From NCBI GenBank assembly GCA_963758135.1, contig CAVWUF010000002.1, positions 110,822 through 174,821 of the forward strand: a stretch of 64,000 bases of DNA, given 5' to 3'. Each line of letters starts with the position of its first letter. Position 1 is the stretch's first letter. This stretch comes from an uncultured Acidobacteriaceae bacterium (GTDB lineage: Bacteria; Acidobacteriota; Terriglobia; Terriglobales; Acidobacteriaceae). The position numbers and the translations under genes were made by a program. Under the pieces are notes generated by a model that saw nothing but the letters and a program-made list of their open reading frames with translations, was not told the origin of the DNA and ran no database searches. Shown here piece after piece: positions 32,923-59,962 of the stretch.

Positions 32923-33792
32923 TCACACGCCGACCGGCATGTTTTTAGGCTTTTTCGAGAGCAGATAAAGCATGAAGAGAACGGCAAGTAGCGAGCCTAA
33001 ACCGGCGAGCCCGAGGATGCGCAGAATCGCAACGGTGTAGCGGCCCTGGGTGAGGGAATAGCTGCAGCAGTAGAGAAGTACCAGGTCGCTAAGAGTTCCG
33101 ATGCGGTGAGTGCTGGCCTCTATGAGGGCAAGGCGCACGTCCCGCGGCTGGTAGTCGATGCCGAAGAGGTACTTCGACAACCGGCCGTCGGGCGTGGCGA
33201 TCATGATGACGCTGGAATGGGCGAACTGCGTCATCTTGCCATCGGGGCCTGGGACGCGAACGTAATGGAAGCCAGTGGCCTCGGCCAGGTCGGTGATGGA
33301 GGCTTGCGCGCCGGTGAGGAAGTGGACGGAGCTGGCCGCGGGGCCTGAGACGGGCAAATCGATCATGGAGAGGAAGTGCTGTTTTTCGGCTGCTGCATCC
33401 GCGGGCGTGTCAGCGGGGTCAATGCTGGCGACGACAACGTCGTATTCGTGCCCGGCATGAAAGCCGCTCTGGCGCAGGGCCGACGCCATGCCTCGGAGCA
33501 CCTGAGGGCAGAGCATCTGGCAGTTGTAGTACATCAACGCCAACATGACGGGGCGATTGTGGTTGAAGTCGTCGCCGAGCTTTATCTCACGGCCGGATTC
33601 ATCTCTAAAGATGTCGCGGAGGGGCAGCGGCCGGTTGAGGTTCTGTTCGATGCCTGCGTTCTTTTGCCATGCAGGCGCCTGCTGCGCCGTTGCGCCGACG
33701 GGGCGATCGGCCGCGTATTGAGCGCGGGCCGCGATCGGCGCAAGGACGCTGGCAAGAATGAGGAGGCTGAAAGTGGCGCGGCGAAGGATCAC
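32923..33792 (-). CDS. SCO1/SenC-family copper chaperone/thiol-disulfide protein with C-terminal TM
   Basis: Signal peptide, thioredoxin-like fold with the CxxxC motif YYNCQMLCPQVL, conserved His in FAHSSVIMIATPDG, and a C-terminal hydrophobic segment. Confidence 0.8.
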   Translation of the reverse strand: MILRRATFSLLILASVLAPIAARAQYAADRPVGATAQQAPAWQKNAGIEQNLNRPLPLRDIFRDESGREIKLGDDFNHNRPVMLALMYYNCQMLCPQVLRGMASALRQSGFHAGHEYDVVVASIDPADTPADAAAEKQHFLSMIDLPVSGPAASSVHFLTGAQASITDLAEATGFHYVRVPGPDGKMTQFAHSSVIMIATPDGRLSKYLFGIDYQPRDVRLALIEASTHRIGTLSDLVLLYCCSYSLTQGRYTVAILRILGLAGLGSLLAVLFMLYLLSKKPKNMPVGV

Positions 33793-36450: not shown

Positions 36451-36579
36451 GCCGGTAGCCTGTAGCTGGGAGCTGAGAGGCGAAGGCGCGTTGAGGCGCA
36501 CTTTCGGCTCCTATACCGGACGGACTTCAACCGGGCGTGGGTTCAAGTAGCAGTAATTGTTACGTAATTGAGGAGAATC

Positions 36580-39115: not shown

Positions 39116-39229
39116 GGTTGCAATCTCGGCATGAGTGTACCAGTCTGCTTTACCCGCCGGGGCGTGAGGGGCCAGCGAAATTCGAACCGGCTAAATATCC
39201 CCGGCAGTGCCGGGGCCTCCTATGGTTCG

Positions 39230-40252: not shown

Positions 40253-40970
40253 ATACGCTCCGCGCCTGCTCCATTGTTGATATCTTGATCATCGGCTCGC
40301 GCAGGAAGCGCATTAGGTTCTTCTAATAAGTTGTCCGCGCGCCTCCTGCTGCTATGCATCAATATGGGAATCCTATAATCTTCCCTATCGTGGACGGCCC
40401 GCAATCGCGCGCAGGCTATCGCCTCATTTCCCGTCAGTTGCAGTCAGCGCAGATGCTGGCCGCCTCGCCGGTTCGCCTTCCACACACAAGTCTATGTTTT
40501 CGAACCGGCGCTGGATTAGTTCCCTGGGCCTCGAGGCAGTGAATCCAACGATCGGTCGGTTGCGGAAACCCGCGCATTTCTCACTCACGTTCTCCTCCGA
40601 ACGAATGGCTTCCTCAATCCTCTCCCGGACAGAACAAAATCTGCGGCTCTATTCCTGACACCTCACCCCCCGGGGGAGAGGTCGACACTGCCTCAGCCAT
40701 TCGGCCGTGGAAGGGGCTGTGAGAGTCGAGGTTTTGCGCCCCCGCGATGACCTTCCAGGACGAGAGGTGACTCCGTGACCTGTCAGTGGGAGCAGCCTGC
40801 GATTAAGCCCCCCCTCCGTGCACCCGATAGTTCTATTGACAAGCCGCACCAACCCGCAAAATCTCTCTTTTAGCGATGCATCTAAAGGACTTCCTCAAGT
40901 TCCCACGATAACGCTGAAGTAACCACCACCAAAGTACATCTATCCCGTCTCCACAGTGCCTTTTCTGAAG

Positions 40971-41151: not shown

Positions 41152-42036
41152 ATGTCTGCCGAACAGTCCCCGGGTTCTTCTCGTCTTTCCCGTTTCCTCG
41201 GGAATGGCCGTTGGCTCGCTCCAATGCTTCTGGTGGCGATGGCAGGCGCCGCGCATGCGACGGACACCTTCACGGTAAACTCGCTTTCGGACGATGCCAG
41301 CGGAGTCGCGGCGAACTGCCCCGCCAACGCCGTCCCCTCCGGGACCTGCACCCTGCGGGATGCCGTTGCCGCAACGAACGCCGACTCGAACCCCAGCACG
41401 ATCCAGTTCTCCGTCTCGGGAACCATCGTTGTCGCGTCCAATATCCTCATTAACAACGCCAGCGCAGCCCTGACCATTACCAATCAATCGGGGACGGGGC
41501 CCATTACGCTTTCCGGCAATAATGCCACCACTGTGTTCGGTTTGTTCCCGGGCACCGTGACTCTCTCCTACCTGACGATTACCAACGGCAACGGCGGTTC
41601 GGGCGACGCTGGCGCCATCTATAACGAGGCTCATCTCACCCTGAACAATGTCGTCCTCGAAAACAACACCACGACGGCCGGATTCGGCGGCGGCGCCATT
41701 TATAACGCCAGCGGCGCGACGCTCACCGCAAATTACTGCGCGTTTTACAACAATTCCGAAGCCAACACCGGAGCCGTCGGCGGCGCCATCGAAAACGCCA
41801 GCGGCGCCAGCATCACCGTGAACGGCAGCACATTTTACGGCAATACCGCGTTTCAGGGCGCCGCTATTGAGAACGACAGCTCCAACGCCGTCACCGTTAC
41901 CAACACGACCTTCGTCAACAATACGGTCATCTACGCTGCCAGCGCGATCTATAACAACGGCCCTGCTCTCAACGTCTACAACAGTACCTTCTGGGAAACA
42001 ACCAGGATAGCATTGCCTACGCCGGCAGTGCCCTGA
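41152..42036 (+). CDS. giant secreted beta-helix protein A, N-terminal part (ends at a frameshift)
   Basis: MSAEQSPGSSRLSRFLGNGRWLAPMLLVAMAGAAHA leader, CTLRDAVAATNA motif, GGAIYN/GGAIEN and FxxN repeats. Colinear with the start of gene B. The frame is lost at the G-run 41993-41995. Confidence 0.8.
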   Translation: MSAEQSPGSSRLSRFLGNGRWLAPMLLVAMAGAAHATDTFTVNSLSDDASGVAANCPANAVPSGTCTLRDAVAATNADSNPSTIQFSVSGTIVVASNILINNASAALTITNQSGTGPITLSGNNATTVFGLFPGTVTLSYLTITNGNGGSGDAGAIYNEAHLTLNNVVLENNTTTAGFGGGAIYNASGATLTANYCAFYNNSEANTGAVGGAIENASGASITVNGSTFYGNTAFQGAAIENDSSNAVTVTNTTFVNNTVIYAASAIYNNGPALNVYNSTFWETTRIALPTPAVP

Positions 42037-42161
42037 ATATCTATAACAGCCTGTTTGACAAGAGCAGTGCATGCGCTTCCGCCGGGCCAGCATGCCCCTC
42101 CACCGGCGATGGACATGGCAACGTCGTAGCGCCCACCAATTCGGTCAGCGGAAGGCCGGCT

Positions 42162-45100
42162 ATGCTGCCTCTTGGCAATTACGGCGGACCTACGCAAACC
42201 ATGCTGCCGATGCCGGGCAGTTCCGCTATCTGCGCGGGCATCTACAGCGATGTCCCCGGCGGCGTGACCACCGACCAGCGCACTTTCCCGATCAAGTCTT
42301 CATGCGTGGACGCGGGCGCGGTGCAATCCAATTACATCGCCGTGACCAGTGGCGCCGACGATGCCACCGGTGTCCCGGCGAACTGCCCTGGGTCTGGATG
42401 CGAGCTTCGCGATGCAGTCTCTTCAGCTAACGCCGCGGGTGACGCCGATATTGATTTCTCCACCGGTGTGAGCACCGTCACGCTCACATCGGCGGGTCCG
42501 GCCACGACTGGCAATGTCAATGTCGTAGGACCAGGTGCGAACTCTCTGACCATCACCGGTCAGAATGAGTACGCCCTTCTCAGCACATCCGGCGGGAGCG
42601 CCTTCCTGTACGGGATGACTTTTGCCAACGGCTCTGCGAGCACTGGCGGCGCCATCTACAACCAGGACGCCCTCACCCTCAGCGGAATGAGCTTTACCGG
42701 CAATACCGCCACCACCGCCGGGGGCGCCATCTACAACCAGAGCGGAACGGTCACGGTCCTCAACAGCAGCTTCACAAACAATACGGCGCCCAATGGCAGC
42801 GCGCTCTACAATCACAGCACCAGTGGCGCGGTCACAGCCGAATACAGCACCTTTGCGAACAATACCGCCGCCACCGCCGCCGCCGTCTACACCGTGGGCG
42901 GCGCCCCTCTTAGCCTGTACAACACCACCCTCTCGGGCAATACCGGCGGCGGCATCGATTTCGCAGGCAGCTCCGCACTGGTCGTGGAGAACAGCATCCT
43001 GGGCGAATCGACCGAGTGCACCGTCTCCGGCGGGGCCGCATGCCCCACCACGGGAACCCTCGGCAACGTCGTAACTCCCACCAACTCGAACACGGGTATG
43101 GCCGCCCTTTCCGCGCCCGGCAGCTACAGCGGGACCAATACGCTCTATTCCACTCAGTCCGTCCTGCCCGAGCCGGGAAGCTCCGCGATCTGCGCCGGTT
43201 CAGCCACGCTGATTCCATCCGGCATTAGTACCGATCAACGCGGTTTCTCGAATGAGAATCTCACCTATACCGGCTATTCCAGCGGCCATCCTTGTGTCGA
43301 CGCTGGCGCCGTCCAGACTAATTACACCTCCGCCCAGTTCGTCGGCACACCTCCTTATGCCGGCACTGCGAATACACCCGGAACGACGCCGCCGGTGATC
43401 GTGTCGGTAACCGAGAACAGTCAGAATGTCGGCGGAGTGCAGGTGCCCCTCACTTTCAGCGGGACCGGCACAGCGACCGGTCTGACCGCCACCACCGTCG
43501 AAGGCACTGGCGCAACCTTCTCCAGCATCAATGTGCCCCAGCCTTCCGGCGGATCGCCTGACACGCTCTCCACCAGCATGACCGTGGTCGGCACCGATAC
43601 ACTCACCGCTGGCCCTGTCAACTTGACGATGGCCGCGGGCACTCCGACTCCCCCCACTATTACCAGCGCCAATAGCGCCACATTCACAACCGGCGCGTCA
43701 GGCACCTTCACCGTGACGGCATCGGGCTATCCCGCGTCTACTTTCAGCGGATCCGGCACTCTGCCCAGCGGCGTTTCGCTGACCACTGCCGGAGTTCTGT
43801 CCGGCACGCCGGCCGCGGGGACCGGCGGCAGCTATCCGATCACCATTACGGCGTCGAACGGAAATACTCCGAATGCCACGCAGAGCTTCACATTAACCGT
43901 CAACCAAACGCCAGCCATCACCAGCGCCAACACCACAAGCTTTGCCGCCGGAACAGCCGGCACCTTCACCGTAACCGCGACTGGCTATCCTGCCCCCACA
44001 TTCACCGAAACCGGCACTCTGCCCAGCGGCGTTACGCTGACCACTGCCGGGGTCCTCTCCGGCACGCCAGCGGCTGGAAGCGGCGGCAGCTATCCGATCA
44101 CCATTACGGCGTCGAACGGAGTTAGCCCCAACGCCACCCAGAGCTTCACCCTCACCGTCAGCCAAACGCCAGCCATCACCAGCGCCAGCACCACAAGCTT
44201 TGCCGCGGGAACCGCGGGGACCTTCACCGTAACCGCGACTGGCTATCCTGCCCCCACCTTCACCGAAACCGGCACTCTGCCCAGCGGCGTTACGCTGACC
44301 GCTGCCGGAGTCCTCTCCGGCACACCGGCGGCTGGAAGCGGCGGCAGCTATCCGATTACCATCACCGCCCAGAACGGAAATACTCCTAACGCAACACAGA
44401 GCTTCACGCTGACTGTGACTCAGCCTCCAGCCTTCACCAGCGCCAGCACCACAAGCTTTGCCGCGGGAACCGCGGGCACCTTCACCGTAACCGCGACTGG
44501 ATATCCCGCGCCCACTTTCACCGAAACCGGCACTCTGCCCAGCGGCGTTACGCTGACCACTGCCGGAGTCCTCTCCGGCACGCCAGCCGCGGGAAGCGGC
44601 GGCAGCTATCCGATCACCATTACGGCGTCGAACGGAGTTAGCCCCAACGCTACGCAGAGCTTCACCCTCGCCGTCAGCCAAACGCCAGCCATCACCAGCG
44701 CCAGCACCACAAGCTTTGCCGCGGGAACCGCGGGCACCTTCACCGTAACCGCGACTGGATACCCCGCGCCCACCTTCACAGAAACCGGCACTCTGCCCAG
44801 CGGCGTTACGCTGACCACTGCCGGAGTCCTCTCCGGCACGCCAGCCGCTGGAAGCGGCGGCAGCTATCCGATCACCATTACGGCGTCGAACGGAAATGCT
44901 CCTAACGCCACCCAGAGCTTTACATTAACCGTCAACCAAACGCCAGTCATCACCAGCGCCAGCACCACAAGCTTTGCGGCGGGAACCGCGGGCACCTTCA
45001 CCGTAACCGCGACTGGATACCCTGCCCCCACTTTCACCGAAACCGGCCCTCTGCCCAGCGGCGTTACGCTGACCACTGCCGGAGTCCTCTCCGGCACCCC

Positions 45101-48100
45101 AGCGGCTGGAAGCGGCGGCAGCTATCCGATCACTATTACGGCCCAGAACGGAAATACTCCTAACGCCACCCAGAGCTTTACATTAACCGTCAACCAAACG
45201 CCAGCCATCACCAGCGCCAGCACCACAAGCTTTGCCGCGGGAACAGCGGGCACCTTTACCGTAACCGCGACTGGCTATCCCGCGCCCACCTTCACCGAAA
45301 CCGGCACTCTGCCCAGCGGCGTTACGCTGACCAGCGGAGGGGTTCTGTCCGGCACCCCGGCGGCTGGAAGCGGCGGCAGCTATCCAGTCACCATCACCGC
45401 GCAGAACGGAAATGCTCCTAACGCAACACAGAGCTTTACATTAACCGTCAACCAAACGCCAGCCATCACCAGCGCCAGCACCACAAGCTTTGCCGCGGGA
45501 ACCGCGGGTACCTTCACCGTAACCGCGACTGGATACCCTGCCCCCACTTTCACCGAAACCGGCCCTCTGCCCAGCGGCGTTACGCTGACCAGTGCCGGAG
45601 TGCTGTCCGGCACCCCAGCGGCTGGAAGCGGCGGCAGCTATCCGATCACTATTACGGCCCAGAACGGAAATACTCCTAACGCAACACAGAGCTTCACGCT
45701 GACTGTGACTCAGCCTCCAGCCATTACCAGCGCCAGTAGCGCCGCCTTCGCTCTGGGAACTGCGGGGACCTTCACAGTTACCGCGACTGGATACCCCGCG
45801 CCCACCTTCACAGAAACCGGCACTCTGCCCAGTGGCGTTACGCTGACCACTGCCGGGGTCCTCTCCGGCACGCCAGCCGCAGGGTCGGCGGGCGCTTACC
45901 CGATCACCATCACCGCGCAGAACGGAAACACCCCTAACGCCACCCAGAGCTTTACATTAACCGTCAACCAAACGCCAGCCATCACCAGCGCCAGCACCAC
46001 AAGCTTTGCCGCGGGAACAGCGGGCACCTTCACCGTAACCGCGACTGGCTATCCTGCCCCCACCTTCACCGAAACCGGCACTCTGCCCAGCGGCGTTACG
46101 CTGACCACTGCCGGAGTCCTGTCCGGCACACCGGCGGCTGGAAGCGGCGGCAGCTATCCGATCACCATTACGGCGTCGAACGGAGTTAGCCCCAACGCTA
46201 CGCAGAGCTTCACCCTCACCGTCAGCCAAACGCCAGCCATCACCAGCGCCAGCACCACAAGCTTTGCCGCGGGAACCGCAGGCACCTTCACCGTGACCGC
46301 GACTGGATACCCCGCGCCCACCTTCACCGAAACCGGCCCTCTGCCCAGCGGCGTTACGCTGACCACTGCCGGAGTCCTCTCCGGCACGCCAGCCGCTGGA
46401 ACCGGCGGCAGCTATCCGATCACTATTACGGCCCAGAACGGAAATACTCCCAACGCAACACAGAGCTTTACATTAACCGTCAGCCAAACGCCAGCCATCA
46501 CCAGCGCCAGCACCACAAGCTTTGCCGCCGGAACCGCAGGCACCTTCACCGTAACCGCGACTGGCTATCCTGCCCCCACCTTCACCGAAACCGGCCCTCT
46601 GCCCAGCGGCGTTACGCTTACCACTGCCGGAGTCCTCTCCGGCACGCCAGCCGCGGGAAGCGGCGGCAGCTATCCGATCACCATTACGGCGTCGAACGGA
46701 AATACTCCTAACGCCACCCAGAGCTTCACGCTGACTGTGACTCAGCCTCCAGCCATTACCAGCGCCAGTAGCGCCGCTTTCGCTCTGGGAACTGCGGGCA
46801 CCTTCACAGTTACGGCGACTGGATACCCCGCGCCCACCTTCACCGAAACCGGCACTCTGCCCAGCGGCGTTACACTGACCACGGCCGGAGTCCTCTCCGG
46901 CACGCCAGCCGCGGGGTCGGGCGGTACGTACCCCATCACTATCACAGCGCAGAATGGCTCTAGTCCCAACGCCACACAGTCCTTCACACTAACTATCGGC
47001 TCGCCGACGCCGATCGTTCCCTACATCCAGGATGTGCAAGCCAACAGCGGAGCCTGGCAAGGAGTATCGAATCTCTCCGTGACCTACGGCGACACGGTGA
47101 ACATCGGTCCGCAGCCGGCGAGCGGCGGTTCCTGGAGCTGGACCGGTCCCAATGGCTTCACAGCTACTTCGCGGGAAATTGACCACATTGCGCTGCCGTC
47201 GGCCACCAATGTCTACACCGCCACTTACACCAATTCCATCGGTCTTACGAGCACACAGGTTTTCACCATCACGATCAGCCCCACGCCGATCGTTCCCTAT
47301 GTCCAGGATCTCCAGCAGAACGGTGGAGCGTTCCAGCAAGTCTCCACCCTCGCCGCGAATTATGGCGACACGGTGAACATCGGCCCGCAGCCGGCGAGCG
47401 GCGGTTCCTGGAGCTGGACCGGCCCCAATGGCTTCACAGCCAGCACGCGCGCCATCTCCGGCATTGCCCTGCCTTCGCCCTCCAATGTTTACACCGCAAC
47501 CTACACCAACCCCGCCGGAGCGACCAGCACCCAGGCCTTTACCATCACCGTCAACCCCACCCCGATTGTTCCCTACATCGAGGTGAACGGAGGAGCCTGG
47601 CAGAGCGTTGCCAGTGTCACGGTCAATGCAGGCAGCACGGTCAACCTCGGCCCGGCGCAACAGAACGGCGGTTCCTGGAGCTGGACCGGTCCTAACGGCT
47701 TTACTTCCACCTCGCGGGAGCTCGACGCCATTGCCCTGCCTGCGGCCACCAATGTCTACACCGCCACTTACACCAATCCCGCCGGAGCGACCAGCACCCA
47801 GACGTTTACCATTTCCTTCGCATCGACACCTATCGTTCCTTATATCCAGGATCTCCAGCAGAACGGCGGAGCGTTCCAGCAAGTCTCCACCCTCGCGGCG
47901 AATTATGGCGACACCGTGAACATCGGCCCGCAGCCGGCGAGCGGCGGTTCCTGGAGCTGGACCGGTCCCAATGGCTTCACAGCCAGCACGCGCGCCATCT
48001 CCGGCATTGCCCTGCCTTCGCCCTCCAATGTCTACACCGCCACTTACACCAACCCGCAGGGAGCCACGAGCACGCAGGCCTTTACCATCACCGTCAACCC

Positions 48101-50006
48101 CACCCCGATCGTTCCCTACATCGAGGTGAACGGAGGAGCCTGGCAGAGCGTTGCCAGCGTCACGGTCAATGCAGGCAGCACGGTCAACCTCGGCCCGGCG
48201 CAACAGAACGGCGGTTCCTGGAGCTGGACCGGTCCTAACGGCTTTACTTCCACCTCGCGGGAGCTCGACGCCATTGCCCTGCCTGCGGCCACCAATGTCT
48301 ACACCGCCACTTACACCAATCCCGCCGGAGCGACCAGCACCCAGACGTTTACCATTTCCTTTGCATCGACACCCATCGTTCCTTATATCCAGGATCTCCA
48401 GCAGAACGGCGGAGCCTACCAGCAAGCCGCCAGCCTCACGGCGAATTATGGCGACACGGTGAACATCGGTCCGCAGCCGTCGAGCGGCGGTTCCTGGAGC
48501 TGGACCGGTCCCAATGGCTTCACTTCCACCTCGCGGGAGCTCGACGCCATTGCCCTGCCTTTGCCCTCCAATGTCTACACCGCCACTTACACCAACCCGC
48601 AGGGAGCCACGAGCACACAGGCCTTTACCATCACGATCAGCCCCACGCCCATCGTTCCCTATATCCAGGATCTCCAGCAGAACGGCGGAGCGTTCCAGCA
48701 AGTCTCCACCCTCGCGGCGAATTATGGCGACACGGTGAACATCGGCCCGCAGCCGGCGAGCGGCGGTTCCTGGAGCTGGACCGGCCCCAATGGCTTCACA
48801 GCCAGCACGCGCGCCATCTCCGGCATTGCCCTGCCTTCGCCCTCCAATGTCTACACCGCAACCTACACCAACCCCGCCGGAGCGACCAGCACCCAGGCCT
48901 TTACCATCACCGTCAACCCCACCCCGATCGTTCCCTACATCGAGGTGAACGGAGGAGCCTGGCAGAGCGTTGCCAGTGTCACGGTCAATGCAGGCAGCAC
49001 GGTCAACCTCGGCCCGGCGCAACAGAACGGCGGTTCCTGGAGCTGGACCGGTCCTAACGGCTTTACTTCCACCTCGCGGGAGCTCGACGCCATTGCCCTG
49101 CCTGCGGCCACCAATGTCTACACCGCCACTTACACCAATCCCGCCGGAGCGACCAGCACCCAGACGTTTACCATTTCCTTCGCATCGACACCCATCGTTC
49201 CTTATATCCAGGATCTCCAGCAGAACGGCGGAGCCTACCAGCAAGCCGCCAGCCTCACGGCGAATTATGGCGACACGGTGAACATCGGTCCGCAGCCGTC
49301 GAGCGGCGGTTCCTGGAGCTGGACCGGTCCCAATGGCTTCACTTCCACCTCGCGGGAGCTCGACGCCATTGCCCTGCCTTTGCCCTCCAATGTCTACACC
49401 GCTACTTACACCAACCCGCAGGGAGCCACGAGCACACAGGCCTTTACCATCACGATCAGCCCCACGCCCATCGTTCCCTATATCGACGATCTCCAGCAGA
49501 ACGGCGGAGCCTACCAGCAAGTCTCCACCCTCGCGGTGAACTACGGCGACACCGTCGACATTGCCCCGTGGCCGCAGACCGGTGGTTCCTGGAGTTGGAT
49601 TGGCCCCAATGGGTTTACTTCCAATGTGCGGGAAATCGACAGCATCCCCCTGGCGTCGGCGTCCAATGTCTTCACGGCGACTTACACCAACCCCGCCGGA
49701 GTGACCAGCACGCAGGCCTTTACCATTACCGTTAACCCCACCACCATCGCTCCCTACCTTGAGGTGGACGGAGGAGCCTGGCAAAATGCTGCCAGCGTCA
49801 CTGTCAACCCGGGCGACATAGTGAACCTCGGTCCGCAGCCGCAGAACGGCGGTTCCTGGAGCTGGAGCGGTCCAAACGGCTTCTCCTCCAATGCGCGGGA
49901 AATTGACAACATTCCACTGGCCGTGGGTACTAATACCTATGTGGCTACTTACACCAATCAGGCTGGGGTCACGAGTTCGCAGATTTATGTCATCACCCTC
50001 AACTAA
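42162..50006 (+). CDS. giant secreted beta-helix protein A, main part (homology in this frame already starts at ~41994)
   Basis: Continues the gene B-like sequence (LPLGNYGGPTQT ...). Contains a second CELRDAV + GGAIYN beta-helix module, then 13 He_PIG-like repeats and 11 GGSWSWTGPNGF repeats. Together with 41152..42036 it gives about 2950 aa. Confidence 0.85.
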   Translation: MLPLGNYGGPTQTMLPMPGSSAICAGIYSDVPGGVTTDQRTFPIKSSCVDAGAVQSNYIAVTSGADDATGVPANCPGSGCELRDAVSSANAAGDADIDFSTGVSTVTLTSAGPATTGNVNVVGPGANSLTITGQNEYALLSTSGGSAFLYGMTFANGSASTGGAIYNQDALTLSGMSFTGNTATTAGGAIYNQSGTVTVLNSSFTNNTAPNGSALYNHSTSGAVTAEYSTFANNTAATAAAVYTVGGAPLSLYNTTLSGNTGGGIDFAGSSALVVENSILGESTECTVSGGAACPTTGTLGNVVTPTNSNTGMAALSAPGSYSGTNTLYSTQSVLPEPGSSAICAGSATLIPSGISTDQRGFSNENLTYTGYSSGHPCVDAGAVQTNYTSAQFVGTPPYAGTANTPGTTPPVIVSVTENSQNVGGVQVPLTFSGTGTATGLTATTVEGTGATFSSINVPQPSGGSPDTLSTSMTVVGTDTLTAGPVNLTMAAGTPTPPTITSANSATFTTGASGTFTVTASGYPASTFSGSGTLPSGVSLTTAGVLSGTPAAGTGGSYPITITASNGNTPNATQSFTLTVNQTPAITSANTTSFAAGTAGTFTVTATGYPAPTFTETGTLPSGVTLTTAGVLSGTPAAGSGGSYPITITASNGVSPNATQSFTLTVSQTPAITSASTTSFAAGTAGTFTVTATGYPAPTFTETGTLPSGVTLTAAGVLSGTPAAGSGGSYPITITAQNGNTPNATQSFTLTVTQPPAFTSASTTSFAAGTAGTFTVTATGYPAPTFTETGTLPSGVTLTTAGVLSGTPAAGSGGSYPITITASNGVSPNATQSFTLAVSQTPAITSASTTSFAAGTAGTFTVTATGYPAPTFTETGTLPSGVTLTTAGVLSGTPAAGSGGSYPITITASNGNAPNATQSFTLTVNQTPVITSASTTSFAAGTAGTFTVTATGYPAPTFTETGPLPSGVTLTTAGVLSGTPAAGSGGSYPITITAQNGNTPNATQSFTLTVNQTPAITSASTTSFAAGTAGTFTVTATGYPAPTFTETGTLPSGVTLTSGGVLSGTPAAGSGGSYPVTITAQNGNAPNATQSFTLTVNQTPAITSASTTSFAAGTAGTFTVTATGYPAPTFTETGPLPSGVTLTSAGVLSGTPAAGSGGSYPITITAQNGNTPNATQSFTLTVTQPPAITSASSAAFALGTAGTFTVTATGYPAPTFTETGTLPSGVTLTTAGVLSGTPAAGSAGAYPITITAQNGNTPNATQSFTLTVNQTPAITSASTTSFAAGTAGTFTVTATGYPAPTFTETGTLPSGVTLTTAGVLSGTPAAGSGGSYPITITASNGVSPNATQSFTLTVSQTPAITSASTTSFAAGTAGTFTVTATGYPAPTFTETGPLPSGVTLTTAGVLSGTPAAGTGGSYPITITAQNGNTPNATQSFTLTVSQTPAITSASTTSFAAGTAGTFTVTATGYPAPTFTETGPLPSGVTLTTAGVLSGTPAAGSGGSYPITITASNGNTPNATQSFTLTVTQPPAITSASSAAFALGTAGTFTVTATGYPAPTFTETGTLPSGVTLTTAGVLSGTPAAGSGGTYPITITAQNGSSPNATQSFTLTIGSPTPIVPYIQDVQANSGAWQGVSNLSVTYGDTVNIGPQPASGGSWSWTGPNGFTATSREIDHIALPSATNVYTATYTNSIGLTSTQVFTITISPTPIVPYVQDLQQNGGAFQQVSTLAANYGDTVNIGPQPASGGSWSWTGPNGFTASTRAISGIALPSPSNVYTATYTNPAGATSTQAFTITVNPTPIVPYIEVNGGAWQSVASVTVNAGSTVNLGPAQQNGGSWSWTGPNGFTSTSRELDAIALPAATNVYTATYTNPAGATSTQTFTISFASTPIVPYIQDLQQNGGAFQQVSTLAANYGDTVNIGPQPASGGSWSWTGPNGFTASTRAISGIALPSPSNVYTATYTNPQGATSTQAFTITVNPTPIVPYIEVNGGAWQSVASVTVNAGSTVNLGPAQQNGGSWSWTGPNGFTSTSRELDAIALPAATNVYTATYTNPAGATSTQTFTISFASTPIVPYIQDLQQNGGAYQQAASLTANYGDTVNIGPQPSSGGSWSWTGPNGFTSTSRELDAIALPLPSNVYTATYTNPQGATSTQAFTITISPTPIVPYIQDLQQNGGAFQQVSTLAANYGDTVNIGPQPASGGSWSWTGPNGFTASTRAISGIALPSPSNVYTATYTNPAGATSTQAFTITVNPTPIVPYIEVNGGAWQSVASVTVNAGSTVNLGPAQQNGGSWSWTGPNGFTSTSRELDAIALPAATNVYTATYTNPAGATSTQTFTISFASTPIVPYIQDLQQNGGAYQQAASLTANYGDTVNIGPQPSSGGSWSWTGPNGFTSTSRELDAIALPLPSNVYTATYTNPQGATSTQAFTITISPTPIVPYIDDLQQNGGAYQQVSTLAVNYGDTVDIAPWPQTGGSWSWIGPNGFTSNVREIDSIPLASASNVFTATYTNPAGVTSTQAFTITVNPTTIAPYLEVDGGAWQNAASVTVNPGDIVNLGPQPQNGGSWSWSGPNGFSSNAREIDNIPLAVGTNTYVATYTNQAGVTSSQIYVITLN
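43650..47003 (+). repeat. 13 in-frame tandem repeats of 258 bp (86 aa), He_PIG-like putative Ig domain
   Basis: Exact 258-nt periodicity (43650, 43908, 44166 ... 46746). Unit consensus: TPAITSASTTSFAAGTAGTFTVTATGYPAPTFTETGTLPSGVTLTTAGVLSGTPAAGSGGSYPITITASNGNTPNATQSFTLTVNQ. Confidence 0.9.
47004..50003 (+). repeat. 11 in-frame tandem repeats of 261-276 bp (87-92 aa) carrying the GGSWSWTGPNGF motif, with an 819-bp higher-order repeat
   Basis: Unit starts (the P of PIVPY): 47010, 47286, 47562, 47829, 48105, 48372, 48648, 48924, 49191, 49467, 49743. Units 4-5-6 (47829..48647) are repeated as units 7-8-9 (48648..49466). Confidence 0.9.
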
Positions 50007-50319: not shown

Positions 50320-53300
50320 ATGTCTGCTGAACTATCCCTGGGTTCTTCTCGCAACTCCCGCTTTGTTTCCCGGCTCATCGGGAATGGCCGTTGGCTCGCT
50401 GCCCTGCTGCTGCTCGCGGTGGCAGGGGCTGCGCACGCTGCGGACACCTTCACGGTGAACTCCCTCAATGACGATGCGAGTGGCGTCGCGGCGAACTGCC
50501 CGGCTAACGCCGTCCCCACAGGGACATGCACCCTGCGCGATGCCATCGCTGCGGCGAACGCCGATGCGAATGCGAGCACGATCCAGTTCTCCGTGTCAGG
50601 GACCATCGTGGTGTCTTCGACTCTCACGGTCAATAACTCCAAAGTAGCCGTGACCATCAGCAATCAGTCAGGCTCGGGGGCCATTGCGATTTCAGGCAAT
50701 AACGCTCAGCAGGTCCTCGGTGTGCTTCCCGGCACAGCGACGTTTTCCTACATCACGATCGAAAACGGGAATGGAGGCTCGACGACTGCCGGCGGTATCT
50801 ACAACGAAGGCAATCTAACCCTCAGCAACGTCGTTCTCCAAAACAACACCACCACAGCCGGGATCGGAGGCGGGGGTGTCTATAACAAAAGCGGCGCGAC
50901 GCTCACCGTGGCATACAGCTCGTTTTACGGCAATTCCGACACAAAAACCGGCACAACGGGCGGCGCGATCGAAAATGCCAGCGGCGCTACGCTCAGCGTG
51001 AGCGGGAGCACGTTTTACGGCAACTCCTCTTATCAGGGCGGCGCCATTGAAAACGACAGCGCTAATGCGCTCACCATTACCAACAGCACCTTCGACGGCA
51101 ATACTGCATCGTACCAGGCCAGTGCAATTTACAGCGGCAACGGCGCAGCTCTCAACATCTACGACAGCACGTTCTATGGAAACAACAAAACCGGGATCGC
51201 CTACGGCGGTTCCAGCCAGCTGAATGTTTACAACAGCCTTTTTGACGCAAGCGGGGAGTGCGGCACTGCCGCCCCGGCGGCTTGCCCCACCAATGGCACC
51301 AAGGGCAACATCGTGGCGCCCACCAATTCGGTTTCCGGCAGGCCGGCCGTGTTACCGCTCGGCAATTACGGCGGCCCAACTCAGACCCTGATGCCGATGC
51401 CGGGGAGCTCCGCCATCTGCGCGGGGCTGTCAGCCGATGTTCCGAACGGCGTAACCATTGACCAGCGCACCTTCCCGTTCAATAGCGCCTGTGTGGATGC
51501 CGGTGCGGTTCAAACCAATTACATCACCGTCACCACGGGCAGCGATCATACCGCTAGCGCGGCTAACTGCCCCGGTTCCAACTGTGCATTTCGCGATGCG
51601 GTCGCGGCAGCCAACGCCGCGTTCAACGGCGACATCGCCTTCGCGAACACAGTATCGACTGTCACCCTTACGGCGGAAGGTCCCACCAACCTTTACAACA
51701 CCAATATCATCGGACCTGGGGCCAGTTCTCTCGCCGTCAACGGACAGGGCACCAATGTGCTCTATGGCTCATTCGGCGGAAACGTCTTCATGTACGGAAT
51801 GACCTTTGAGAACGGCTATAACAGCAGCGACCAAACCGGTGGCGCCATTTATAACCAGACGAACCTCACCGTGAGCAATATGGTTTTCACGGGCAACGTT
51901 GCGTTAGCCGCCGGCGGAGCGATCTATACCAAGCAGGGCAGTCTCACGGTTCTCAACAGCAGCTTTATAAACAATACGGCCCCCCAGGGAAGCGCTCTTT
52001 ACAACAACACCACGAACGGCCCGCTCGTCGCTGAATACAGCACCTTTGCCAACAACGACGCTACCACCAACGAAGGCGGCGCCATCTTCTCCGCCTACGG
52101 CGCCCCGATGAGCCTCTACAACACGACGCTCTCCGGCAATATCAACACCGGCATTATCTTCGCCGGCAGCGGTGCCCTGGTGGTGGAGAACAGCGTCCTG
52201 GACAGCAGCGCTGAGTGCATCGCCGACAGCCCCGCCGCTTGCCCGACCACGGGTACCCTCGGCAACGTCGTGGGCCCCACCAACTCTAACGCCGGAGTGG
52301 CGCCCCTCTCCGCGCCCGGCAATTACAGCGGGACCAATTCACAGTACTCTACTCAATCCGTCCTGCCCGAGCCCGGAAGCTCCGCAATCTGCGCCGGTTC
52401 CTCGACTTTGATTCCAGCCGGGGTCACAACCGATCAGCGCGGCTTTTCGAACGAGAACATCACCTACACAGGCTATTCGGCCAGTAAGATTTGCGTCGAC
52501 GCCGGCGCCGTCCAGACCAACTACACCTCTGCCCAGTTTGTCGGGGCCCCTTATACCGGCACTTCAAATACACCAGGGGCAACACCGGCCGTGATCGCAT
52601 CGGTTACTGAGAACGGTCAGAATGTCGGCGGAGTCCAGATACCTCTTACCTTCAGCGGAGCCGGAACAGCATCGGGAACAACGGCGACCACGGTCGAAGG
52701 CACCGGCGCAACCTTCTCCAGCATCGAGGTGAATCAACCCAGCGGCTCTTCGCCTGACACCCTCTCGATCAGTCTTCCTGTCGTCGGAACCGACAAGCTC
52801 GCCGCCGGACCGGTCAACTGGACAGTGTCCTCGCAAATTGTTCCCTATATCCGGGATCTCCAGGCGAACGGGGGAGCGTGGGAGAATGCCTCCACTCTCA
52901 CGGTGAACTATGGTGACACCGTTGACATCGGCCCGCAACCGGCAACTGGCGGTTCGTGGAGCTGGACCGGTCCCAATGGGTTTACCTCCACTTCGCGGGA
53001 AATCGACGGCATTTCGGTGGCTTCGGCCTCGAACGTTTACACGGCAACTTACACCGATCCGGGTGGCGTCAAGAGCACGCTCGCATTCACAATCACGGTC
53101 GGCCCCACCACCATCGTTCCTTATATCCAGGATGTCCAGGAGGACGGAGGGGCCTATCAGCAGGTCGCCGGCATCACAGCGGCTTACACCGACACGGTAA
53201 ACCTTGGACCCCAACCCCAGACTGGCGGCTCCTGGAGCTGGACCGGTCCCAATGGGTTCACCTCCACTTCCCGGCAGCTCAACGCCGTTGGGTTGCCTTC

Positions 53301-54201
53301 ACCCACAAATACCTACACCGCCACCTACACCAATCCGGCCGGCGTCAAGAGCTCGATGGCACTGACGATTACCGTCAGCCCCACAGCCATCGTTCCCTAT
53401 ATCCAGGATCTGCAGCTGAACGGGGGGGCCTATCAGCAGGTTTCCACCCTCTCGGTCAATTACGGCGACACCGTGAATCTTGGCCCGCAACCCGAGAGCG
53501 GCGGTTCGTGGAGCTGGACTGGTCCTAATAACTTCACCGCCAACACGCGGCAAATCAGCAATATCCCCCTCACTTCGGCCTCGAATGTCTACACCGCAAC
53601 TTACACCAATCCGGCTGGAGTTACGAGCACTCAGCAATTCACCATCACCATAAACCCCACCACGATCGTTCCCTACATCCAGGATGTGCAGGCCAACAGC
53701 GGAGCCTGGCAGAATGTCGCCACTCTTACGGTGAACTATGGCGACACGGTGAACATCGGCCCCCAACCCGTCAACGGTGGTTCGTGGAGCTGGACTGGCC
53801 CCAATAACTTCACCGCCAACACACGGCAAATCAGCAGTGTCCCGCTCAATTCAACCTCAAATGTCTTCACGGCGACTTACACTAATCCAGCGGGAGTCAC
53901 GAGCACACAGCAATTTACCATCACCGTCGGTCCAACCCCGATTGTTCCCTATATCGAGGTGAACGGCGGAGCCTGGCAGAATGTCGCCACCGTAACCGTC
54001 GCCTCCGGCAGCACGGTGAACATCGGTCCCCAACCCCTGAACGGTGGCACCTGGAGCTGGACCGGTCCCAATAACTTCTCGGCCCATACCCGCGAAATCG
54101 ACAGCATCCCGCTCAGCGGAGGCTCCAATGTCTTCACTGCAACTTATACCAATCCGGCCGGGACCGCGAGTACCCAGCAATTCACCATCACGGTTCAGTA
54201 A
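50320..54201 (+). CDS. giant secreted beta-helix protein B (1293 aa)
   Basis: Same leader and two CxLRDA + GGAI/FxxN beta-helix modules as A, then 5 GGSWSWTGPNGF/GPNNF repeats. No He_PIG-like repeats. Confidence 0.85.
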   Translation: MSAELSLGSSRNSRFVSRLIGNGRWLAALLLLAVAGAAHAADTFTVNSLNDDASGVAANCPANAVPTGTCTLRDAIAAANADANASTIQFSVSGTIVVSSTLTVNNSKVAVTISNQSGSGAIAISGNNAQQVLGVLPGTATFSYITIENGNGGSTTAGGIYNEGNLTLSNVVLQNNTTTAGIGGGGVYNKSGATLTVAYSSFYGNSDTKTGTTGGAIENASGATLSVSGSTFYGNSSYQGGAIENDSANALTITNSTFDGNTASYQASAIYSGNGAALNIYDSTFYGNNKTGIAYGGSSQLNVYNSLFDASGECGTAAPAACPTNGTKGNIVAPTNSVSGRPAVLPLGNYGGPTQTLMPMPGSSAICAGLSADVPNGVTIDQRTFPFNSACVDAGAVQTNYITVTTGSDHTASAANCPGSNCAFRDAVAAANAAFNGDIAFANTVSTVTLTAEGPTNLYNTNIIGPGASSLAVNGQGTNVLYGSFGGNVFMYGMTFENGYNSSDQTGGAIYNQTNLTVSNMVFTGNVALAAGGAIYTKQGSLTVLNSSFINNTAPQGSALYNNTTNGPLVAEYSTFANNDATTNEGGAIFSAYGAPMSLYNTTLSGNINTGIIFAGSGALVVENSVLDSSAECIADSPAACPTTGTLGNVVGPTNSNAGVAPLSAPGNYSGTNSQYSTQSVLPEPGSSAICAGSSTLIPAGVTTDQRGFSNENITYTGYSASKICVDAGAVQTNYTSAQFVGAPYTGTSNTPGATPAVIASVTENGQNVGGVQIPLTFSGAGTASGTTATTVEGTGATFSSIEVNQPSGSSPDTLSISLPVVGTDKLAAGPVNWTVSSQIVPYIRDLQANGGAWENASTLTVNYGDTVDIGPQPATGGSWSWTGPNGFTSTSREIDGISVASASNVYTATYTDPGGVKSTLAFTITVGPTTIVPYIQDVQEDGGAYQQVAGITAAYTDTVNLGPQPQTGGSWSWTGPNGFTSTSRQLNAVGLPSPTNTYTATYTNPAGVKSSMALTITVSPTAIVPYIQDLQLNGGAYQQVSTLSVNYGDTVNLGPQPESGGSWSWTGPNNFTANTRQISNIPLTSASNVYTATYTNPAGVTSTQQFTITINPTTIVPYIQDVQANSGAWQNVATLTVNYGDTVNIGPQPVNGGSWSWTGPNNFTANTRQISSVPLNSTSNVFTATYTNPAGVTSTQQFTITVGPTPIVPYIEVNGGAWQNVATVTVASGSTVNIGPQPLNGGTWSWTGPNNFSAHTREIDSIPLSGGSNVFTATYTNPAGTASTQQFTITVQ
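52831..54198 (+). repeat. 5 in-frame tandem ~91-aa GGSWSWTGPN(G/N)F repeats in gene B
   Basis: Units begin QIVPYIRDLQ, TIVPYIQDVQ, AIVPYIQDLQ, TIVPYIQDVQ, PIVPYIEVNGG. They are more diverged from each other than those in gene A. Confidence 0.85.
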
Positions 54202-54859: not shown

Positions 54860-57800
54860 ATGCCTGCCAAATCGTCCCTGGATTCTGCGCGCCGCTTCTC
54901 GCCATCGCGCCTGTTCTCTCTGTTCATCGTCTCTTGCGTGTGGCTCGTCCCCATGTTGCTGCTCGGCACCGCCGCCAGCGCGATGGCTGCGGACACCTAT
55001 ACGGTGACCGTGCTTACCGACGACTATGCTGGAGGCGGCAATCTGAACGGCACCACCTCCAACTGTCCGGCCAACGGCCTCGGTAGCAACTGCTCTCTGC
55101 GCGACGCTATGACCGCGGCCAATGCTGACCCGGGAAGCAGCGTCATATTTCGTTCGGGGCTTTCAGGGCGCATTCCCGTGGGCTTTGTGCTTCCTGAGAT
55201 TGTCGTGAACATGACCGTCGATGGGGGCTCAGCGATTATCCTCGACGGCCTGAACGGAACCACACCATTCGCGGTGTATAACGCTCCGTCCGCCACGCCG
55301 ATCAACGTCACCATCCAAAACTTCACCCTGCAGAACGGCAACGGCCAGAGTCTGGCCGCAACCGGTGGCATCCAGAACCAGTATGCCAACCTCACCGTGA
55401 ATAACGTCGCCTTCCTGAACGTCACAGCCGGCAGTTCCGGATTCGGCGGCGCCATTTATAACAATGGAACTCTGACCGTCAACAACTCCTTTTTCTTCAA
55501 CTGCACTGCCAATAACGGCGGCGCTATTTACAACGATACCGGCGGCAACCTGACCGTCAACGGCAGCACCTTCAACAAGCTCTACGCCACGCAGTCCGCC
55601 AGCATCTTCCAGTACAGCACCACGCTGCTGGTTGTTACCAACAGCACTTTCACCGGAAATTCCGCCATTTATGGCGCCGGCATTTACAGCATTAACAACG
55701 CCAACCTCACCGTGAAAGACAGCACGTTCTTCGGCAACACGGCGGAAGACGGCGGCGGCGTCTCCTATACCGGCGACCCCACAAAACCAACAGTGGTCAC
55801 GCTCGAAAACAACTACTTTGCGGAAAACAACGAGTGCTATGCCGATCCCGGTGCGCCGATCTGCCCAACCAATGGCCAGTACGGGAACTACGTAGGGCCC
55901 AGCTCCTCGACGACCCTGGCTGCAGCCGGCCTGCTGCCGCTCAGCTACTATGGCGGCCTCACCCCGACCATGCTGCCCATGCCGGGTAGCCCGGGGATCT
56001 GCGCCGGCATTGCCGCCGATGTCCCCACCGGAGTCACCAAAGACCAGCGCGGCTTCCCGCTCAAAACTTCGTGCGTCGACGCCGGCGCGGTTCAGACTAA
56101 CTATCTCACTGTGAGCAAGGCCGGCGATGATGCCACCGGTATTGCTGCTAACTGCCCTGGTTCATCGTGCGGCTTGCGCGACGCCATCGCATATGCAAAT
56201 GCCGCGGGCTACGGCGACATCGATTTCGCGAACGGCTTAGCCAGCATCGCGCTTACCTCGGCCGGTCCCTCCGTGGGCCCCAGCGTAAATATCGTCGGCC
56301 CCGGCGCGGGTTCACTCACCGTCTCCGGCGCTAACCAATACCCAATCCTCGAGACCTCCGGTGGAAGCGCGTCCGTGTTCGGGATGACTTTCGCCAACGG
56401 CAATAACACCGCGAACGGCACCGGCGGCGCTATCGACAATCTGGCGAACCTCACCGTGAACGGGATGTACTTTACCGGAAACTCCGCGGCTACCTCCGGC
56501 GGCGCCATCTACAACGACGGCTCCGGGTCGGTTACTGTTATCGACAGCACCTTCGCCAACAACACGGCCCCCGACGGCAGCGCAATCTACGACAACAGCG
56601 CGACGGGTGGCCTGCTGATGAAATACAGCACCATCGCGAACAACACTGCTTCCGCCGACGGCGCTATCTACAGCGGCAGCGGCGCAGCGGTCAACGTCTA
56701 TAACAGCACCCTGGCCGGCAACACCGGCGGCGGCATCGTTATCGGCGGCGGTTCTACTCTGACGGTGGAAAACAGCATCCTGGGCGAGAGCACAGAGTGC
56801 TCCGGCTCAACCTCCTGCCCCGCCACAGGGACTCTGGGCAACGTCGTCGCCCCAACCAATCTCACCAGCGGCATTCCGGCCCTCTCCGCGCTTGGCTATT
56901 ACAGCGGCACGAGTGCTCTGTTCTCCACGCCAACCATTCTTCCCGAACCGGGCAGCTCAGCCATCTGCGCAGCCTCTGCCACGTTGATTCCTTCCGGCAT
57001 CAACACCGACCAGCGCGGCTTCCTTAACGAGAACTACACCTACCCCGGCTATCCGTACACCGCCCCCTGCTACGACGCGGGCGCCGTACAGACGGATTAC
57101 ACGTCGGCGCAGTTTGTCGGCGCTCCTTATTCCGCTGCTGCGAACTCTAACGGAGCAACTCCGCCCGTGATCGTTTCGGTCACAGAAAACGGCCAGAACG
57201 TTGGCGGAGTGACCGTACCGCTGAGCTTCACTGGAACCGGAACCGCCACCGGCCTGACGGCAACCACCGTCGAAGGCACGGGCGCCACCTTCTCCAGCCT
57301 CAATGTCAACCAGGCCAGCGGCGCCTTGCCTGACACTCTCTCCACCAGCATTCCGGTTATCGGCACCTTTGCCCTGACCGCCGGTCCGGCCAGCCTGACT
57401 GTGCAAGCGCAGGTCGTTACCTGGCCGGCACCGTCAGCAATAACCTATGGCACCGCACTCAGCGCAACTCAGCTGGATGCGACATCCACCGTGAACGGCT
57501 CCTTCTCTTACTCTCCGGCCGCCGGCACGGTTCTTACCGCTGGGACTCACATCCTCGTTGCGACCTTCACACCATCCAACGGAAGCCTGGGAACACTCAC
57601 CAACACGGTGACGATAACCGTTAACAAGGCGACTCCCGTCATCACGTGGGCGGCTCCGGCGGCTATCACCTCCGGTACCGCGCTCAGTTCCACCCAGCTG
57701 GATGCGACCGCCAGCGTAGGTACCGCCAACGTAGCCGGGACCTTTGCTTACTCCCCGGCTGCAGGCACCATCCCCTCTGTCGGAACAGATACGCTGTCGG

Positions 57801-59962
57801 TCACCTTCACTCCCACCGACACCACCGACTACAACACGGCAACCGCCTCCGTCAGCCTCGTGGTCAACCAGGGCGCGGCGCCAACCATCACCTGGCCAAC
57901 ACCGTCGGCAATCACCTACGGTACTGCACTCAGCGCAACCCAGCTGGATGCTACCGCCAGTGTTAATGGCAGCTTCTCTTACTCTCCGATGGCCGGCACG
58001 CTTCTCACCGCTGGGTCGCACGTCATTACTGCCACCTTCACACCATCCAACGCGAGCCTGGGCACAGTCACCACCACTGTAACCATAACCGTGAACAAGG
58101 TGACACCCGTCATCACGTGGGCGGCTCCGGCGGCTATCACCTCCGGTACCGCGCTCAGCTCCACCCAGCTGGATGCGACCGCAAGCGTAGGCACCGCCAG
58201 CGTAGCCGGTACCTTTGCTTACACCCCGGCTGCAGGCACCATCCCATCCGCCGGAACAGACACTCTGTCGGTGACTTTCACTCCCACCGACACCACCGAC
58301 TACAACACGGCAACCGCCTCTGTCAGCCTCGTGGTCAATCAAAGTGGTTCGACGCCGACCATCACGTGGCCGACCCCGGCGGCAATCACCTACGGCACCG
58401 CACTCAGCGCAACCCAGCTGGATGCGACCGCAAGCGTTTCAGGCACCTTCACTTACTCTCCGGCCGCAGGCACCGTGCTGAAGGCTGGGTCGCAGACTTT
58501 ATCCGCGACCTTTAAGCCGAGCAGCTCCAGCCTGAGCTCGGTCACCACCACCGTCACGCTGACCGTTAACCAGGCGAATCCGGTTATCACCTGGACGAAT
58601 CCTCCGAACATTGTCTACGGCACACCGATCACCACTGCCGAGCAGAACGCAACCGCCAACGTCCCGGGCAGCTACGTCTACACTGCTCCGCTCGGAACCG
58701 TCTACACGGCAGGTGTGCATCCCCTCGGCGTCGCGTTCTTCCCGACCGACCAGGTAGACTACGCCGATGTTTCGGGCTACGCCTACGTCACCGTCACCAA
58801 AGCTACTCCGGTCATCAGCTGGGCAACACCGGCTGCGATCCTCTACGGCACCACGCTCAGCTCTACCCAGCTGAACGCCACCGCCAACGTTGCAGGAACC
58901 TTCGCCTACTCCCCGGCTGCCGGTACCGTGCCGGCCGTTGGTACTGACACTCTGACGGTCACCTTCACGCCCAGCGACACCACAGACTACAACGCGACGA
59001 GCGCCGCCGTACTGCTGACGGTGGCCTCGCCTGCAACTCCAATCGTTCCTTACATTCAGGTGAACGGCGGAGCCTGGCAGAACATCTCCAGTGTCACGGT
59101 CGCCGCCGGCAGCACAGTCAATCTTGGACCTCAACCCTCAACCGGTGGTTCGTGGAGCTGGACTGGCACCGCTGGTTTCACCTCGACTTCACGCCAGATC
59201 ACCAGCATTCCGCTGCTCTCCGGCGTCAACACCTACGTCGCAACCTACACCAATACCTCTGGTGTAACCACCACCCAGACCTTCACCATCACCGTTACCG
59301 GCTGGCAGCAGATCGGCACCAGCGTGAGCAACATGTCAGTTGGTTCCGACGGCACACTGGTGGTGGTCAACTCGTCAGCATCGACAATCTGGGAGTTCAC
59401 AGCGGCGACAGGCGCCTGGACGCAGCTGCCCGGTACCGCCAAAGAGGTTGCCGTCGTCAACGCCAATAGCATCTGGTCAATCGGCACCAACCGCAATGTC
59501 TATCACCTCGTCAGCGGGGCATGGGTTCAGGTCGGCGTCAGTGCCGACGCGATCGCCGCCGGCTCCGATGGAACGGTCATCGCCGCCGATTACCCCAACC
59601 AGACCATCTGGAAGTATGTGTCCGGCTCTAACTGGACCCAGGTTCCCTTTGGCCTCTCGTCCCAGGTGTCGGTCGTCAGGAACAATGACTACTTCATCCT
59701 CGGCAACGGTCCCGGATACTGGCTGTGGAATTACAACGGAAGCGCCTGGTCCGCTGTTGGACAATCAGCCTACAGCTGGGTCTCCTCCGCCTCCGACGGG
59801 ACAGTCATCACCACCACCAGCGCCGGTAACATCTACCAGTACGTATCGCACGGCAACTTCACCCAGATAACCGGAACCATGAAAGAAGTGGTTGTGCAAA
59901 AAGCCGGCGCCTATTACGCCATCGGAGAAGACGGCAACGTCTACGGTTACGGCACTCACTAA
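54860..59962 (+). CDS. giant secreted beta-helix protein C (1700 aa) with MBG-like repeats and a C-terminal tectonin-like beta-propeller
   Basis: Leader MPAKSSLDSARRFSPSRLF ... LLGTAASAMA (alternative GTG at 54851). CSLRDAMTAANA and CGLRDAIAYANA modules with GGAIYN repeats. Then 7 ITYGTALSATQLDAT-type repeats, one GGSWSWTG unit and six W-x-Q-[IV/LP]-G blades. Confidence 0.85.
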   Translation: MPAKSSLDSARRFSPSRLFSLFIVSCVWLVPMLLLGTAASAMAADTYTVTVLTDDYAGGGNLNGTTSNCPANGLGSNCSLRDAMTAANADPGSSVIFRSGLSGRIPVGFVLPEIVVNMTVDGGSAIILDGLNGTTPFAVYNAPSATPINVTIQNFTLQNGNGQSLAATGGIQNQYANLTVNNVAFLNVTAGSSGFGGAIYNNGTLTVNNSFFFNCTANNGGAIYNDTGGNLTVNGSTFNKLYATQSASIFQYSTTLLVVTNSTFTGNSAIYGAGIYSINNANLTVKDSTFFGNTAEDGGGVSYTGDPTKPTVVTLENNYFAENNECYADPGAPICPTNGQYGNYVGPSSSTTLAAAGLLPLSYYGGLTPTMLPMPGSPGICAGIAADVPTGVTKDQRGFPLKTSCVDAGAVQTNYLTVSKAGDDATGIAANCPGSSCGLRDAIAYANAAGYGDIDFANGLASIALTSAGPSVGPSVNIVGPGAGSLTVSGANQYPILETSGGSASVFGMTFANGNNTANGTGGAIDNLANLTVNGMYFTGNSAATSGGAIYNDGSGSVTVIDSTFANNTAPDGSAIYDNSATGGLLMKYSTIANNTASADGAIYSGSGAAVNVYNSTLAGNTGGGIVIGGGSTLTVENSILGESTECSGSTSCPATGTLGNVVAPTNLTSGIPALSALGYYSGTSALFSTPTILPEPGSSAICAASATLIPSGINTDQRGFLNENYTYPGYPYTAPCYDAGAVQTDYTSAQFVGAPYSAAANSNGATPPVIVSVTENGQNVGGVTVPLSFTGTGTATGLTATTVEGTGATFSSLNVNQASGALPDTLSTSIPVIGTFALTAGPASLTVQAQVVTWPAPSAITYGTALSATQLDATSTVNGSFSYSPAAGTVLTAGTHILVATFTPSNGSLGTLTNTVTITVNKATPVITWAAPAAITSGTALSSTQLDATASVGTANVAGTFAYSPAAGTIPSVGTDTLSVTFTPTDTTDYNTATASVSLVVNQGAAPTITWPTPSAITYGTALSATQLDATASVNGSFSYSPMAGTLLTAGSHVITATFTPSNASLGTVTTTVTITVNKVTPVITWAAPAAITSGTALSSTQLDATASVGTASVAGTFAYTPAAGTIPSAGTDTLSVTFTPTDTTDYNTATASVSLVVNQSGSTPTITWPTPAAITYGTALSATQLDATASVSGTFTYSPAAGTVLKAGSQTLSATFKPSSSSLSSVTTTVTLTVNQANPVITWTNPPNIVYGTPITTAEQNATANVPGSYVYTAPLGTVYTAGVHPLGVAFFPTDQVDYADVSGYAYVTVTKATPVISWATPAAILYGTTLSSTQLNATANVAGTFAYSPAAGTVPAVGTDTLTVTFTPSDTTDYNATSAAVLLTVASPATPIVPYIQVNGGAWQNISSVTVAAGSTVNLGPQPSTGGSWSWTGTAGFTSTSRQITSIPLLSGVNTYVATYTNTSGVTTTQTFTITVTGWQQIGTSVSNMSVGSDGTLVVVNSSASTIWEFTAATGAWTQLPGTAKEVAVVNANSIWSIGTNRNVYHLVSGAWVQVGVSADAIAAGSDGTVIAADYPNQTIWKYVSGSNWTQVPFGLSSQVSVVRNNDYFILGNGPGYWLWNYNGSAWSAVGQSAYSWVSSASDGTVITTTSAGNIYQYVSHGNFTQITGTMKEVVVQKAGAYYAIGEDGNVYGYGTH
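57413..59026 (+). repeat. 7 in-frame tandem ~74-83-aa MBG-like (YG-type Ig-like) repeats, with a 471-bp two-unit higher-order repeat
   Basis: Unit pattern: P(V/T)ITW..P.AIT(Y/S)GTALS.TQLDATA.V.G(S/T)F.YSPAAGT ... FTP(S/T) ... V.L.VN. Units 1+2 are repeated as units 3+4; the off-frame track ORFs 57646.. and 58117.. have matching translations. Confidence 0.8.

Follow-up and report, generated by a model that had tools for sequence, protein, structure and literature searches.

In an uncultured soil Acidobacteriaceae genome, a giant open reading frame that we call gene A is split by the absence of one base from a short run of G. Gene A constitutes one gene, about 2950 codons long, that is predicted to encode a secreted CSLREA / choice-of-anchor-Q beta-helix protein, and alignment with relatives indicates that the break is a derived, private one-nucleotide contraction, not a conserved arrangement. 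For annotation, this means one gene in place of a 270–294-aa protein plus a 2614-aa protein. Two causes carry most of the weight, an error in the consensus sequence and a real, young null allele, and the cause is ordinary under both; the G run needs to be checked in the reads before gene A is counted as a pseudogene. Coordinates without a contig label refer to the window, the whole stretch of 64,000 nucleotides that was analyzed.

Break site and predicted product of gene A

At the break the window reads TTCTGGGAAAC, and the run at 41993–41995 is GGG (G3). The upstream ORF, which opens with ATG 41152 (MSAEQ...), reads ...NVYNSTFWETTRIALPTPAVP; it follows the frame of gene A until ...NVYNSTFW and then runs through 13 unrelated codons to a premature TGA (Table 1). 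The −1 frame is open for 2683 codons and reads LLGNNQDSIAYAGSALNIYNSLFD...; its stretch GNNQDSIAYAGSALNIYNSLFD... is colinear with the neighboring paralogue B (50320..54201) and, more loosely, with paralogue C (54860..59962). In alignment with orthologues exactly one base is absent (TTCT-GGGAAAC in the window vs. TTCTGGGGAAAC elsewhere), and homology changes frame at a single column. Because 2683 codons are open in the other frame and the homology switches frame at one column, the frame break is far beyond chance. When the frames and the colinearity with B were re-read from the sequence, the two-frame layout agreed in every detail with the preliminary description, including the statement that the shift required of a ribosome is −1. 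Public gene calls divide the locus into a 270-aa product that starts at an internal Met (MLLVAMAG) and a 2614-aa product that starts at ATG 42162.

The start at 41152 is followed by a leader, MSAEQSPGSSRLSRFLGNGRWLAPMLLVAMAGAAHA/TDTF, which is Sec-type by inspection and ends AHA/TD. Two NCBIfam models match the intact gene A allele above their cut-offs of 25 bits: TIGR04214 (CSLREA_Nterm; 55.8 bits) and NF041518 (choice-of-anchor Q; 26.5 bits), the latter domain starting just past the break. Paralogue B has the same two matches. Pfam adds Beta_helix and He_PIG, plus a sub-threshold match to Chlam_PMP. Taken together with the tandem arrays in Table 1, the product is a putative giant secreted surface-type protein. 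Gene A is one member of a three-gene tandem family (A, B, C), and contig C4 of this genome has further copies. The closest species searched was G022, a Microflora Danica MAG of an uncultured Acidobacteriaceae bacterium; at C18:186–192 kb its gene A orthologue is only 1604 aa long, with fewer repeats, and is inverted so that it stands head to head with the orthologue of B, while A, B and C are co-directional in the window genome.

Table 1. Sequence features at and around the gene A break. Positions are those of the window.
Feature	Position	Strand	Remark
C7 tract, 338 nt upstream of the gene A start codon	40808..40814	+	
N-terminal fragment of gene A: Sec-type leader, CSLREA motif (CTLRDA), first beta-helix/PMP-like repeats, 13 out-of-frame codons	41152..42036	+	294 aa + TGA
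−1 frame, gene A continued from 41994: choice-of-anchor Q domain, second beta-helix, He_PIG and Ig-like arrays	41955..50006	+	
Frameshift site, G3 run; the orthologues and three near-identical assemblies all have G4	41993..41995	+	
Premature TGA, upstream frame	42034..42036	+	
258-nt tandem array, 12.8 copies, He_PIG Ig-like domains	43701..46993	+	
276-nt tandem array, 9.8 copies, C-terminal Ig-like repeats common to paralogues B and C	47088..49756	+	

Intact alleles in relatives

The G022 orthologue is one uninterrupted ORF, and G005, a second species of the genus, also has single ORFs; in both, the junction is TTCTGGGGAAAC (G4), which translates to F-W-G-N-N. G4 in G022 is confirmed by a JGI metagenome contig with 99.993% identity to it. 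The alignment of Ga0182012_10000079 (JGI) to G022:C18 extends over 13.9 kb at this identity with no gaps, a match that shows apparently near-clonal spread of the G022 lineage as well as good local accuracy of the Danish MAG.

Copies of the locus much closer to the window were found via exact-protein look-ups in three ENA assemblies, which are 99.2–99.96% identical to it over the aligned stretches. All three read G4, with one frame through the junction. Only two of them hold the whole gene, ERZ25039472 (99.93% identical over 23.7 kb) and ERZ25039486, each with gene A at 2927 aa; the third, ERZ25039529, has a 1430-aa product that runs straight across the junction. Between window positions 40322 and 56583, an interval that includes all of A and B, there are zero substitutions relative to ERZ25039472. 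The sole differences are C8 to C7 at 40808 and G4 to G3 at 41993, the window being shorter at both. G4 and an open frame in the relatives are what mark the break as derived and private, and they remove the two-gene and programmed-frameshift readings discussed below. The proposal in the preliminary description that gene A is one gene, which lost a single nucleotide in the G run, is thus borne out by the GGGG and the unbroken frame of the orthologues and of all three near-identical assemblies. As part of the contrary evidence to look for, it had named relatives with two genes naturally split at this point; the relatives have single genes. Elsewhere in the window, ERZ25039486 differs by 34 clustered SNPs in mgtE (37901–39119) with identical flanks, which looks like a recombination tract between strains.

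That the two ORFs might be naturally separate genes is suggested by the automatic calls on the contig (the 270-aa and 2614-aa products) and by a GGAAGG 6 nt upstream of ATG 42162. The downstream product, however, would have no signal peptide and would begin within the choice-of-anchor Q domain, and all relatives have one ORF across the break. We regard this reading as scarcely credible and, given one ORF in every relative searched, as already refuted. The chance that programmed −1 ribosomal frameshifting or transcriptional slippage joins both ORFs is likewise close to nil. In its favor are the position of the downstream frame, −1 from the upstream one, a GGGAAAC string, and a hairpin of moderate stability that begins 7 nt downstream (MFE −33.4 kcal/mol, z = −2.0, not distinctive). 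GGGAAAC, however, is phased for the wrong frame, and no X XXY YYZ heptamer occurs in the upstream frame within 41950–42036, a range that covers the overlap. Nor is there a long A/T run on which the polymerase could slip. The arrangement is missing from the orthologues and from the 99.2–99.96% identical genomes, which encode F-W-G-N-N directly; lacking conservation, programmed −1 frameshifting is effectively refuted.

Consensus error, null allele or phase variation

The likeliest cause, with about an even chance of being correct, is a Nanopore consensus undercall: a G4 run would have been miscalled as G3 in a long-read (Nanopore-type) consensus without short-read polishing. The organism would then make an intact protein, and no biological event would take place at the site. 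This account depends on a Nanopore-only origin of the MAG and on undercalling reads, both of which we infer. That this genome was built from long reads is implied by its contiguity, with eight contigs reaching 1.25 Mb, and by the intact assembly of an 8-kb near-identical tandem array. Its relatives are MFD long-read MAGs, produced with Nanopore R10.4.1 and Flye, one round of Medaka and no short-read polishing (PMC12313526). According to the same group, such consensus sequences retain homopolymer indels and hence frameshifts, and bins below ~40-fold coverage need short-read polishing; against an undercall, consensus sequences from R10.4 reportedly resolve short homopolymers well (PMC9262707).

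The event itself, a G4-to-G3 contraction relative to G022, G005 and the three near-identical assemblies, has private counterparts of the same type in two sister assemblies. ERZ25039472 reads G3 at 33415, where its SCO1/SenC-like gene is split into 142 + 147 aa. In ERZ25039529, a short contig, three private contractions (C4 to C3, C3 to C2 and G4 to G3) fall within gene A and lead to the truncation at 1430 aa. This genome and its sister long-read assemblies thus each have private one-base contractions of G or C runs that split conserved genes, and therefore their frameshifts should not be taken as biology without read support. At 33415–33418 the window reads G4, and its SCO1/SenC-like gene (289 aa; ORF 32923..33792, minus strand) is whole, a mirror image of the gene A break; an identical copy of the 289-aa protein is present in a Logan contig, and homologues of 288–289 aa in JGI data. 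Another run, at 36533–36535 in the icd-mdh intergenic spacer 5.4 kb upstream, is G3 in the window vs. G4 in ERZ25039472. Over 45.6 kb compared with ERZ25039472, excluding the aroC patch described below, there are 32 SNPs and five one-base indels. Three of the five indels break genes, a proportion expected without selection and unlike real variation. Polarity of indels was taken from named genes checked in the near-identical assemblies, since reading it against G022 from the longest spanning ORF was noisy (shadow ORFs in a genome of 61% G+C).

Housekeeping genes of this genome have further irregularities. In rlmN (C2:933394) a private +A causes a frameshift that is absent from ERZ25039472, GCA_964572765.1, JGI Ga0439243_0053346 and G022, and an exact-protein look-up of the truncated RlmN fragment found no record. 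The sole copy of aroC (C2:938484–939690) has eight one-base indels and 44 mismatches relative to ERZ25039472, to which its flanks are otherwise 99.97% identical; 27 of the 35 coding mismatches are at third codon positions. The patch resembles a genuine divergent allele whose assembly picked up indel noise, and its sequence suggests strain mixture and locally thin support. Across the whole genome, with contigs as oriented, C runs outnumber G runs by 17–30% (13,926 vs. 11,112 runs of four; 3,126 vs. 2,404 runs of five), probably through gene-strand bias in contig orientation. We rejected this asymmetry as an error signal, as consensus errors should be strand-symmetric.

The main evidence for a real allele comes from a second dataset. 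The exact 294-aa truncated product has one further record, on a Logan contig (k-mer assembly, 6549 nt) from run ERR11571142. This contig has G3 and C7 and aligns to the window without gaps, with two SNPs (38779 and 38812), and aroC from the same run is clean and intact, one mismatch from ERZ25039472, in contrast to the noisy consensus of this genome. Since a different method also gives G3 together with a clean aroC, G3 cannot be put down to the polishing of this assembly alone and represents the majority k-mer state in run ERR11571142. Look-ups with def, icd and intact rlmN, aimed at other disputed homopolymers, yielded no further Logan contig.

A real and very recent loss-of-function allele, in which this lineage lost one G from G4, with the intact allele still segregating among sister populations, has somewhat less than an even chance. 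It would be a commonplace null-allele polymorphism in a dispensable, giant surface protein. In its favor, G3 occurs in two datasets whose nearby haplotypes differ (C-C in the window, T-T in the Logan contig at 38779/38812), and the ERR11571142 data do not copy the aroC noise of this genome and agree with the majority at C7 (40808). The intact SCO1-like protein, too, is found in a Logan contig (its run was not named). A context-driven miscall is not expected when three assemblies with identical flanks, presumably of the same chemistry, read G4. On the other side, ERR11571142 may consist of Nanopore reads of the same sample, in which case the G3 calls are not independent; MFD long-read data are deposited in ENA and MFD Illumina data in NCBI SRA, which makes this origin plausible. 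Should the run prove to be Illumina, or its sample a different one, G3 would be real. The private contractions that break conserved genes in each sister assembly, and the other private housekeeping-gene frameshifts in this genome, raise the prior for error.

No second disabling change was found in the 2683 codons after the break, and no substitution relative to ERZ25039472 across A and B. We counted this absence for consensus error; it also fits a recent event. A real allele would mean loss of function without later decay, and therefore a very recent one: secretion would be limited to an N-terminal stub of 294 aa, and the other 2650 codons would have no leader and would start inside the Q domain. 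We put the prior for a real coding frameshift of this kind in this genome at roughly two to three in ten (our own estimate), and estimate that the Logan contig favors reality by a factor of 2.5–4. The balance between consensus error and a real young null allele is close to even because the class of event strongly resembles consensus error, yet the second dataset also has G3.

The preliminary description had also raised slippage-type on/off switching of a surface protein. As a contingency locus, gene A would have slipped-strand changes between G3 and G4, possibly together with C7/C8 changes in the upstream tract, that toggle the adhesin-like protein within populations, and we consider this improbable. 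In the 40808 tract ERZ25039472 has C8, and C7 is shared by the window, ERZ25039486, ERZ25039529 and the Logan contig, a difference that could be a miscall or a real length polymorphism in the promoter region. Variation of both tracts among otherwise near-identical assemblies is what switching would produce, and phase variation is common in genes like this one, which encodes a giant secreted surface-type protein and belongs to a three-gene paralogue family. Nanopore error, however, typically produces such tract-length differences too and explains the variation equally well. High slippage rates need tracts of ~7–8 or more, as in contingency genes of Neisseria, Haemophilus and Campylobacter; a run of 3–4 nt is far below such lengths, and only the upstream C7/C8 tract comes near. 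Furthermore, G4 is kept as plain Trp-Gly codons in the orthologues, and paralogue B has TATGGA at this position. With a tract of only three or four G, no slippery site and a break that is not conserved, on/off switching thus finds poor support. Were both tracts real recurrent switches, natural populations of this peat and soil Acidobacteriaceae lineage would be mosaic for a 2950-aa adhesin-like protein controlled by unusually short tracts, which we think very doubtful. To our knowledge, phase variation is essentially undescribed in this phylum. Upstream of an ABC-2 permease gene elsewhere in this genome (C3:124290–124400) is a run of 7-nt repeats (CCCTGTT, CCCTGCA, AACCTGT) that differs from G022 by one 7-nt unit.

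Comparison with known systems

Of the systems with which the break can be compared, dnaX-type programmed −1 frameshifting shares the layout of two overlapping ORFs in a −1 relation; unlike dnaX, gene A has no in-phase slippery heptamer, and its layout is not conserved. Poly-G/poly-C contingency loci (opa and pilC of Neisseria, poly-G genes of Campylobacter) are similar in that the length of a G run sets the frame of a surface-protein ORF, here with a second tract, of C, upstream. They differ in having tracts of ~7 nt or more vs. 3–4 nt in gene A, where the tract consists of plain codons in relatives.

The two closer parallels are young null alleles and consensus errors. Young frameshift null alleles of surface or adhesin genes resemble gene A in that a single indel interrupts a long, repeat-rich gene for a secreted protein that is otherwise intact, and in that the gene is intact in near-identical strains; the gene A contraction, however, is known here from base calls alone. 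Indel errors in Nanopore-only consensus sequences (Sereika et al., 2022; PMC9262707) differ from the present case in two respects, as the gene A run is only 4 nt, a length usually resolved by R10.4, and a k-mer assembly also has G3. They are alike in that a one-base contraction of a G or C run breaks a gene call, and in that sister assemblies have different private events of this kind; the relatives were assembled from Nanopore reads with Flye and Medaka and no short-read polishing.
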